Below the pieces are notes generated by a model, which worked only from the letters and a program-made list of their open reading frames with translations, was not told where the DNA came from and ran no database searches. Shown in pieces: positions 50,099-50,847 of a stretch of 64,000 bases of DNA; positions within the stretch are counted from its first letter, which is position 1; each line of letters starts with the position of its first letter. The stretch is from sequence record PV691511.1, one strand, 5' to 3'. Made by a program: the position numbers and the translations under genes. Source of the stretch: Escherichia phage WPEC2.

Positions 50099-50236
50099 AT
50101 GATGACAGAGAAGACGTGGGAAGAGATCCTAGCGGAGGCTCAACCGATGGAAGTGAAGAAGATAGTTAACAACGCCCCTTCTCTTCCTAAAATAAAATTT
50201 TATGAGGAAGTAGAAGATAATGAATCTAAAGACTAA
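50099..50236 (+). CDS. small acidic protein (start uncertain)
   Basis: GGAGGA RBS before ATGATG; overlapping alternative 56-codon ORF 49999-50169 also has a strong RBS. Confidence 0.3.
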   Translation: MMTEKTWEEILAEAQPMEVKKIVNNAPSLPKIKFYEEVEDNESKD

Positions 50237-50612
50237 AACTGTATTAAGTTTTGTTTTAATTGTTGTTCTTATTCTTGCCGGAATGTTTGCTTATAACAAG
50301 ATACGTGAGTCTGGCTACAAAGATGGTGTTGCCTATCAAACGCAAGTATATCAAGCAGCCCAAGCAAAAGCAAAACAAGATTTTGATGTTCTTCAAAAAA
50401 GAGCAGACGAAGAAAGAGCATTATTAAATACTCAAATAAACAACTTGTCTAAAAACAATGCACAATTAAAAGCAGATTTAGAGAAGAAGAAACAAACGAT
50501 CAATGAGGATACAACGAATTATGCAAAAACTAATTCTGGCAGTATGTCTTGCTTTGCCCCTAATGATGACGGGTTGTTCATCATCAACAAAAGTTTCCCC
50601 AGTTCTTATTGA
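50220..50612 (+). CDS. i-spanin (Rz-like)
   Basis: N-terminal TM helix VLSFVLIVVLILAGMFAY then coiled-coil periplasmic domain. Confidence 0.55.
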   Translation: MNLKTKTVLSFVLIVVLILAGMFAYNKIRESGYKDGVAYQTQVYQAAQAKAKQDFDVLQKRADEERALLNTQINNLSKNNAQLKADLEKKKQTINEDTTNYAKTNSGSMSCFAPNDDGLFIINKSFPSSY

Positions 50613-50847
50613 TGAGTGTAAGGCTGTAGCCATAGAAAAGGTTAAAGGTCCAGATTCGGACTTGATGGATAAAGTATCGACACCTGTGCCATACACTAAA
50701 AATCAAATTGCAAAAGGGGTTAGTAGATCTGAAGTTGTTAACAACCAAACTCAAAACAATGCTCTTTGGGAGCAAGATAGACGAAAGGTTTTAGGTTTAC
50801 AAACATATATTAAAACACTGCAAGAAAAAGGTATTATTGCTGAATAA
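50503..50847 (+). CDS. o-spanin (Rz1-like lipoprotein), overlapped with i-spanin
   Basis: signal sequence ending LMMTGC lipobox; starts inside 50220..50612 in another frame. Confidence 0.5.
   Translation: MRIQRIMQKLILAVCLALPLMMTGCSSSTKVSPVLIDECKAVAIEKVKGPDSDLMDKVSTPVPYTKNQIAKGVSRSEVVNNQTQNNALWEQDRRKVLGLQTYIKTLQEKGIIAE

Follow-up and report, generated by a model that had tools for sequence, protein, structure and literature searches.

Predicted two-component spanin genes in overlapped layout directly upstream of the large terminase gene of the phAPEC8-like Escherichia phage WPEC2

The locus under study occupies positions 50220 to 50847 of a 64,000-nucleotide stretch of DNA from Escherichia phage WPEC2 (PV691511.1), which was analyzed as a whole and is called the window hereafter. 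It holds two genes that share part of their sequence, followed by the gene for the large terminase subunit. The features of this region, all of them on the plus strand, are listed below.

50220..50612, plus strand: predicted i-spanin gene, 130 aa, assigned from its match to phrog_4297, its hydropathy and its identity to phAPEC8 gp121.
50503..50847, plus strand: predicted o-spanin gene, 114 aa when read from 50503 and 108 aa when read from 50521.
50503..50612, plus strand: region coding in two frames, 110 nt, or 92 nt with 50521 as the o-spanin start.
50566..50577, plus strand: M-T-G-C, the core of the lipobox, in frame +1 (direct reading of the sequence).
50857..52932, plus strand: gene for the large terminase subunit, with matches to phrog_979 (E 1.4e-216) and to Pfam Terminase_6N.

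The o-spanin ORF lies in the +1 frame relative to the i-spanin gene and extends 235 nt beyond its end, so that the pair has the layout denoted 'ovl', in which the o-spanin gene has its start within the i-spanin gene, in a different frame, and its end downstream of that gene. The original prediction of a spanin pair in overlapped layout was thus borne out, as both ORFs were recovered at the coordinates listed above, with the 110-nt overlap in the +1 frame; but its description of the lipoprotein gene as embedded was inaccurate, since the o-spanin runs well past the i-spanin gene. The pair had also been placed directly upstream of the terminase, and indeed only 9 nt lie between the o-spanin stop codon (50845-50847) and the terminase GTG at 50857. 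An AGGAGG is present between this stop codon and the GTG, and a GAGGA was read directly at 50204-50208, ahead of the i-spanin start. A search for promoters around the spanin operon gave 13 sigma-70-like sites against 11.4 in shuffled sequence, none of which was supported, and the counts of terminators around the operon were not clearly above those of shuffled sequence. One promoter picked by eye at about 49945-49975 was dropped, having only 8 of 12 consensus bases. The region around the spanin genes is 99-100% identical to genomes of Phapecoctavirus (ESCO37, WPEC1, WPEC4, WPEC6 and Mt1B1_P17 among the examples), a genus of the subfamily Stephanstirmvirinae which comprises phAPEC8-like E. coli myoviruses of about 150 kb.

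Searched against the PHROG profiles, the product of the first gene matched phrog_4297, 'Rz-like spanin', with an E value of 3.4e-35, and four more Rz-like PHROGs weakly. The hydropathy scan revealed a single TM segment at residues 7-25 (DNA 50238..50294; mean 2.57), which is preceded by Lys residues and followed by a soluble helical domain, and we infer that the protein is anchored by this N-terminal segment with the remainder in the periplasm. Its AlphaFold2 single-sequence model (mean pLDDT 82, with 86-97 across residues 11-100) shows a continuous helix over residues 3-104 and then an unstructured tail, and a coiled coil at 42-106 is given for the identical i-spanin of phAPEC8 (Kongari et al. 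2018, PMC6139136). The one TM segment, the long helix and the phrog_4297 match agree with the Rz-like membrane and coiled-coil protein that had been proposed at this position. In the conserved C-terminal tail there is a PNDDGL motif together with Cys111, which is the sole Cys kept in the i-spanin and is invariant in six aligned relatives. Two-component spanins are known to need homotypic disulfide bonds (Kongari et al. 2018, PMC6139136), and the single conserved Cys111 in the tail fits this rule. When the i-spanin and the o-spanin were scanned against Pfam and NCBIfam nothing scored above cut-off, so that both were captured by PHROGs only.

The product of the second ORF matched phrog_1267, likewise 'Rz-like spanin', with an E value of 8.7e-21. 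Its signal peptide begins with a positively charged stretch, which is followed by a hydrophobic core and by the lipobox CLALPLMMTG/C (the slash marks the cleavage site); this L-M-M-T-G-C is of the PS51257 type, with the Cys at residue 25 (numbered from 50503) and S-S-S after it, the first of these Ser being the +2 residue. The protein is accordingly of the kind predicted to be an outer-membrane lipoprotein precursor, with a mature form of 90 aa beginning at Cys25. N-terminal lipobox patterns were found in 3 of the 255 six-frame ORFs of the window with at least 50 codons, these being the o-spanin, one other real lipoprotein and one antisense Ser-rich false match. In alignments of six divergent spanin pairs the lipobox Gly-Cys (Gly18 and Cys19 when numbered from 50521), the o-spanin Cys33 (Cys39 from 50503, 14 residues past the lipobox Cys) and the i-spanin Cys111 were invariant down to 33-38% identity, the +2 residue of the o-spanin was S, A, T or N and never D, and its C-terminal region was conserved as NN.LW..DR...LQ.Y.K. 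The lipobox, on which the lipoprotein assignment had been staked beforehand, is therefore present in the window, and its Gly-Cys is kept in all six relatives. The bases 50566..50577 that encode its core also encode, in frame 0, part of the conserved P-N-D-D-G-L of the i-spanin, which argues that both frames are under constraint here.

As regards the start codon, the o-spanin ORF of the relatives begins at a Met aligned with 50521 (MQKL...), and a GAGGA is placed at 50505-50509, 11 nt upstream of 50521. On these two grounds 50521 is the more likely start than 50503; a start at 50503 likewise yields a valid signal peptide. In certain GenBank entries, among them ESCO37 and iGC_PHA_EC001, the gene begins at the equivalent of 50563 (MMTGC...; accessions OM386659.1 and OR437326.1). 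A start at MMTGC removes the signal peptide and thereby hides the lipoprotein nature of the product. In phi92 (NC_023693.1) the i-spanin is annotated and the o-spanin is not.

A second lipoprotein is encoded in the window at 34467..34904 on the minus strand (MKKLALILIGCIFLTA/CDDE...), with Asp at both +2 and +3, from which retention in the inner membrane is predicted. The remainder of this protein is Gly/Ser/Asn-rich and basic and matched PHROGs of no assigned function; it might be a superinfection-exclusion protein.

The spanin pair is already known: it appears in a 2018 catalogue of spanins, and several GenBank records annotate it. The catalogue, by Kongari et al. (2018, PMC6139136), which also cites an earlier survey of such genes, lists phAPEC8 gp121 and phAPEC8_00146 as a two-component spanin of the 'ovl' class, with an i-spanin (gp121) of 130 aa and an o-spanin (phAPEC8_00146) of 114 aa, the latter having a signal of 24 aa, a mature part of 90 aa, the lipobox MMTG and an overlap of 110 nt. 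Both window proteins are 100% identical, residue by residue, to these two, and the 'ovl' layout, the length of the overlap, MMTG/C, the 90-aa mature o-spanin and the position ahead of the terminase are all shared with phAPEC8. In the same catalogue phAPEC8 and phi92 form a two-member family for each spanin component (Kongari et al. 2018, PMC6139136); identity of the window proteins to those of phi92 is 50-51% for the i-spanin and 66% for the o-spanin. There is no difference of substance between the window and phAPEC8 or phi92 in this respect; it is upstream of 49937 that the DNA of the window departs from standard genomes. The tblastn searches gave 135 phage records for the o-spanin and 133 for the i-spanin, of which about 64 are at least 95% identical (Phapecoctavirus) and about 70 are 37-72% identical and belong to Justusliebigvirus and related phages of Klebsiella, Salmonella and Citrobacter. 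In several near-identical GenBank records the genes already bear labels such as 'Rz-like spanin', 'Rz spanin' or 'o-spanin', and the orthologues in EmilieFrey were annotated as i-spanin and o-spanin by the BASEL curators, whose genome map starts there, with spanin, terminase and portal genes in this order at the very start of the record. The order of small ORFs, i-spanin, o-spanin, large terminase and portal was observed in ESCO37, iGC_PHA_EC001, phiWec190, phi92, phi1_175008 and 05F01, and in all of these other than 05F01 a tRNA cluster precedes the spanin region. In the more distant KP13-16 the pair lies within the tRNA region, a few kb ahead of the terminase.

Records named as phages of Campylobacter, Acinetobacter and Pseudomonas (for example MG065650.1, MG065639.1 and OP562383.1) match E. 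coli phage sequence. Identity to the window is 96% for Campylobacter phage B15 and 97-99% for Acinetobacter phage ABPW7, and the o-spanin allele of Campylobacter phage A150 is that of phi92. The host labels of the records so named are probably wrong or derived from contamination.

The terminase downstream of the pair carries an insert of 159 aa (residues C43-N201; DNA 50983..51459), which splits the Walker A loop, the sequence around it being ...IYGGAAG/CVSAETEYLTKDGW...HCFVTGN/SGKSRLLLLKALKY, with slashes at the ends of the insert. The first residue of the insert is Cys and the last is Asn, followed by Ser, and the insert matched a PhoH-like PHROG with an E value of 1.4e-11. In Klebsiella phage KP13-16 the terminase is without the insert (...LIYGGAAGSGKSRLILLKALKY) and has an uninterrupted GGAAGSGKS. 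This insert-free allele and the PhoH-like match suggest that the insert is probably a mini-intein, which is unannotated in the records examined. A PDB sequence search and a permissive Pfam scan returned nothing for the insert, and its AlphaFold2 single-sequence model, with a pLDDT of 37, was unusable.

Compared with lambda Rz/Rz1, the window pair has the same plan: a protein with an N-terminal helix in the inner membrane and a helical domain in the periplasm, and an outer-membrane lipoprotein encoded in the +1 frame, with periplasmic cysteines in both proteins. However, Rz1 is fully embedded in Rz whereas the o-spanin of the window extends past the i-spanin, no direct sequence match to the lambda proteins was seen, the matches being to generic 'Rz-like' PHROGs only, and lambda has a holin-endolysin-spanin cassette, which is not the case here. 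Rz1 is short and without helical structure, and for the o-spanin of phAPEC8, which is identical to that of the window, about 37% helix is predicted (Kongari et al. 2018, PMC6139136). With T4 PseT.3/PseT.2 the pair has in common that the spanin genes lie near neither the holin nor the T4-type lysozyme and that the o-spanin is comparatively long, with a predicted C-terminal helix, and scattered lysis genes are the norm in T4 too (Kongari et al. 2018, Fig. 8 legend, PMC6139136); but PseT.3/PseT.2 are 'separated', non-overlapping genes of a different sequence family. In the rV5-like phage LL12 the spanins gp65/gp66 adjoin the terminase gp64 by gene numbering, and the endolysin gp90 is far from them (PMC6658697), but the spanins of the rV5 group (Vequintavirus) are of the 'separated' class and of a different family (Kongari et al. 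2018, PMC6139136). P2 LysB/LysC resemble the window pair in their overlapped two-component layout. One GenBank record labels an orthologue 'LysB family'. The LysB model TIGR03495 gave 16.6 bits against a cut-off of 92.75, and a score so far below the cut-off means that the window pair does not belong to the LysB equivalog.

The endolysin is encoded at the other side of the window, and the tRNA cluster lies between it and the spanin genes.

7547..8047, minus strand: T4-type (GH24) endolysin, with matches to PF00959 and to phrog_7, 'endolysin'.
30763..32688: tRNA cluster of 10 genes (Met, Arg, Ser, Asn, Thr, Gly, Gln, Pro, Ile, Met).

The endolysin scored 43.4 bits against Pfam Phage_lysozyme (PF00959; cut-off 22.3) and carries the catalytic triad E15/D24/T30, as read directly and aligned by eye with E11/D20/T26, which we take to be the triad of T4 lysozyme. 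The hydropathy scan detected no hydrophobic segment in it, which points to a soluble, holin-dependent enzyme. Its neighbours are a 49-aa charged ORF, a glutaredoxin and a PhoH-like ATPase, and the orthologue in EmilieFrey (BASEL) is annotated 'endolysin' and has the same neighbours. The endolysin and spanin genes are not adjacent, as genes of a classical lysis cassette would be: they are 42 kb apart in the window, about 25.5 kb in ESCO37 and about 25-31 kb in standard relatives. The earlier claim of a distant T4-type lysozyme thus held for ESCO37 as well as for the window; the 42 kb is an inflated figure, because a 16.7-kb block, 33271..49936, sits elsewhere in standard genomes.

This block, with nrdD, helicase and TerC genes on the minus strand, lies directly after a terminator-like hairpin, between the tRNA cluster and the spanin operon, unlike in standard Phapecoctavirus genomes, where the tRNA cluster is directly upstream of the spanin-terminase operon. 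The left junction of the block is at 33270/33271 and the right one, with about 9 bp shared, at 49936/49937, and a further breakpoint is near 3110-3260; no record of the phage collection has any of these junctions. Position 1 of the window corresponds, with 100% identity, to the record ends of WPEC1, WPEC4 and WPEC6, so that the block order is possibly an assembly artefact and may reflect a scrambled assembly rather than biology.

In the search for a holin the hydropathy of all window ORFs was scanned, and nine small ORFs, along with the endolysin, were compared with PHROG and Pfam. The small membrane ORFs that emerged as candidates or were checked as such are given here.

21993..22175, minus strand: small membrane ORF, 60 aa, two hydrophobic segments; putative holin/antiholin candidate.
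22172..22366, minus strand: small membrane ORF, 64 aa, two hydrophobic segments; putative holin/antiholin candidate.
34849..35091: small membrane ORF, 80 aa, one segment.
36535..36756, minus strand: small membrane ORF, 73 aa, two to three TM segments, beside a TerC-like membrane protein; putative holin candidate.

The hydropathy scan detected no TM segment in the ORFs that flank the endolysin or the spanins, in keeping with the earlier statement that no holin was recognisable next to either. No holin family was matched among the tested ORFs of the 64-kb window, which is less than half of the genome. Small membrane ORFs had been proposed as places to look for a holin, and their hydrophobic segments were indeed confirmed but no match to a holin family was obtained: the four ORFs listed above matched PHROGs of no assigned function only and no Pfam holin, the PHROGs being phrog_19851 and phrog_35762 for the 21993..22366 pair and phrog_16065 for the 73-aa protein of 36535..36756. 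By tblastn the 60-aa protein was found in 114 phage records and the 73-aa protein in 131, nearly all of them Stephanstirmvirinae. The two ORFs of the 21993..22366 pair overlap by 4 nt and lie between the DNA ligase and pyrophosphohydrolase genes; their layout resembles that of a holin and antiholin, and no family supports this reading. Phage BME3 has an orthologue of the 73-aa protein that carries the label 'holin', apparently from topology alone, and the holin candidates of that phage are small proteins of class II topology located far from the endolysin (PMC12210895). In EmilieFrey (BASEL) the 73-aa orthologue is a hypothetical protein, and no holin is annotated in its 40-90 kb and 96.7-146.7 kb regions. 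Nor is a holin recognised in the published account of LL12 (PMC6658697), and the holin candidate of rV5 was proposed from topology alone (PMC3606486). The ORF at 23910..24236 on the minus strand was rejected as a holin, as it encodes a coiled-coil protein without a TM segment in spite of the label 'hol-like chemotaxis' of its match, phrog_18076. One Phapecoctavirus paper lists 'holin-like proteins' among the lysis genes, discusses a 'hol-like chemotaxis' gene and cites a holin review.

The PHROG matches, the topology of the two proteins, the conserved lipobox and cysteines, the gene order and the identity to a curated pair all agree, and we hold it to be highly likely that the region 50220-50847 codes for the two-component spanin of an E. 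coli myovirus of the phAPEC8 type (Phapecoctavirus). Against it may be set that the genes lie outside any lysis cassette and that, in contrast to lambda Rz1, the mature o-spanin is a long protein of 90 aa which is not rich in proline. In the literature searched we found no experiment on this pair. We considered whether the pair could instead be an envelope system with no part in lysis, for instance a lipoprotein of the T5 Llp or Cor kind which, together with a membrane partner, excludes superinfection or masks a receptor. The pairing of a phage lipoprotein with a small membrane protein, at a distance from the endolysin gene, would fit it in outline, and the window has at least one other lipoprotein of unassigned role (34467..34904), but it is very improbable, since both proteins specifically match spanin families, since the +1 overlap, the helical periplasmic domain and the conserved periplasmic Cys are hallmarks of spanins, and since this exact pair already stands in a curated spanin catalogue. 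Still smaller is the probability that the 130-aa protein is itself the missing holin, with a topology like that of the T4 holin T, and the lipoprotein an accessory factor. Its single N-terminal TM helix and large periplasmic domain do resemble a class III holin, and no tested window ORF matches a holin family; but the protein is equally without a match to T-holin or any other holin family and has the further, weak Rz-like matches, its tight coupling to a lipoprotein gene and its conserved C-terminal Cys are typical of i-spanins, and one long helix suits a coiled-coil spanin and not the globular periplasmic domain of T. That the first gene alone is real and the second ORF a chance open frame, as might be thought from those GenBank records that omit it or start it at MMTGC without a signal peptide, has a negligible probability, because this ORF is conserved, signal peptide and lipobox included, in relatives of as little as 38% identity, matches phrog_1267 (E 9e-21), lies to about two thirds outside the overlap, where it fills the gap to the terminase, and has an N-terminal lipobox pattern of a kind that is rare in the window. 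Even taken together these three readings carry only a small share of the probability, and all three are contradicted by the family matches, the conserved gene coupling and the conservation of the signal peptide.

For the working of the two-component spanin, that is, the formation of the complex, the disulfide dimers, the fusion of membranes and late co-transcription, we reasoned by analogy, with lambda Rz/Rz1 and T4 PseT.3/PseT.2 as the models. The i-spanin would be anchored in the inner membrane by its one N-terminal helix, with the long helical domain reaching into the periplasm, and the o-spanin would be cleaved and lipidated at Cys25 and, as it is without Asp at +2, routed to the outer membrane, into its inner leaflet. 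Binding of the i-spanin to the o-spanin through their C-terminal parts would give complexes that reach across the periplasm and through the mesh of peptidoglycan, and each protein would probably be held as a homodimer through its conserved periplasmic cysteine. With a holin giving it access to the wall, the soluble T4-type lysozyme (7547..8047) would break the wall down, and the spanin complexes thus freed would then fuse the inner and outer membranes and complete lysis. The spanin genes are probably expressed late, together with the packaging and head genes, because they lie directly upstream of these on the same strand; as no promoter around the operon was supported, it is from this position that we infer the timing.

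As to the holin of phAPEC8-type phages, the finding of the spanin pair restates the gap without filling it. We would tentatively suggest, as a possibility to be entertained rather than expected, that in the phAPEC8/phi92 group, and perhaps in rV5-like phages too, the lysozyme is released via a holin of an undescribed family, encoded apart from the endolysin and the spanins, and that this holin could be a member of the 60/64-aa pair or the 73-aa protein. Beyond its correct annotation the spanin pair matters little, as it is a textbook two-component spanin; yet Phapecoctavirus has uses in phage therapy and biocontrol, and in many GenBank records of this genus the o-spanin is missing from the annotation or begins at MMTGC.
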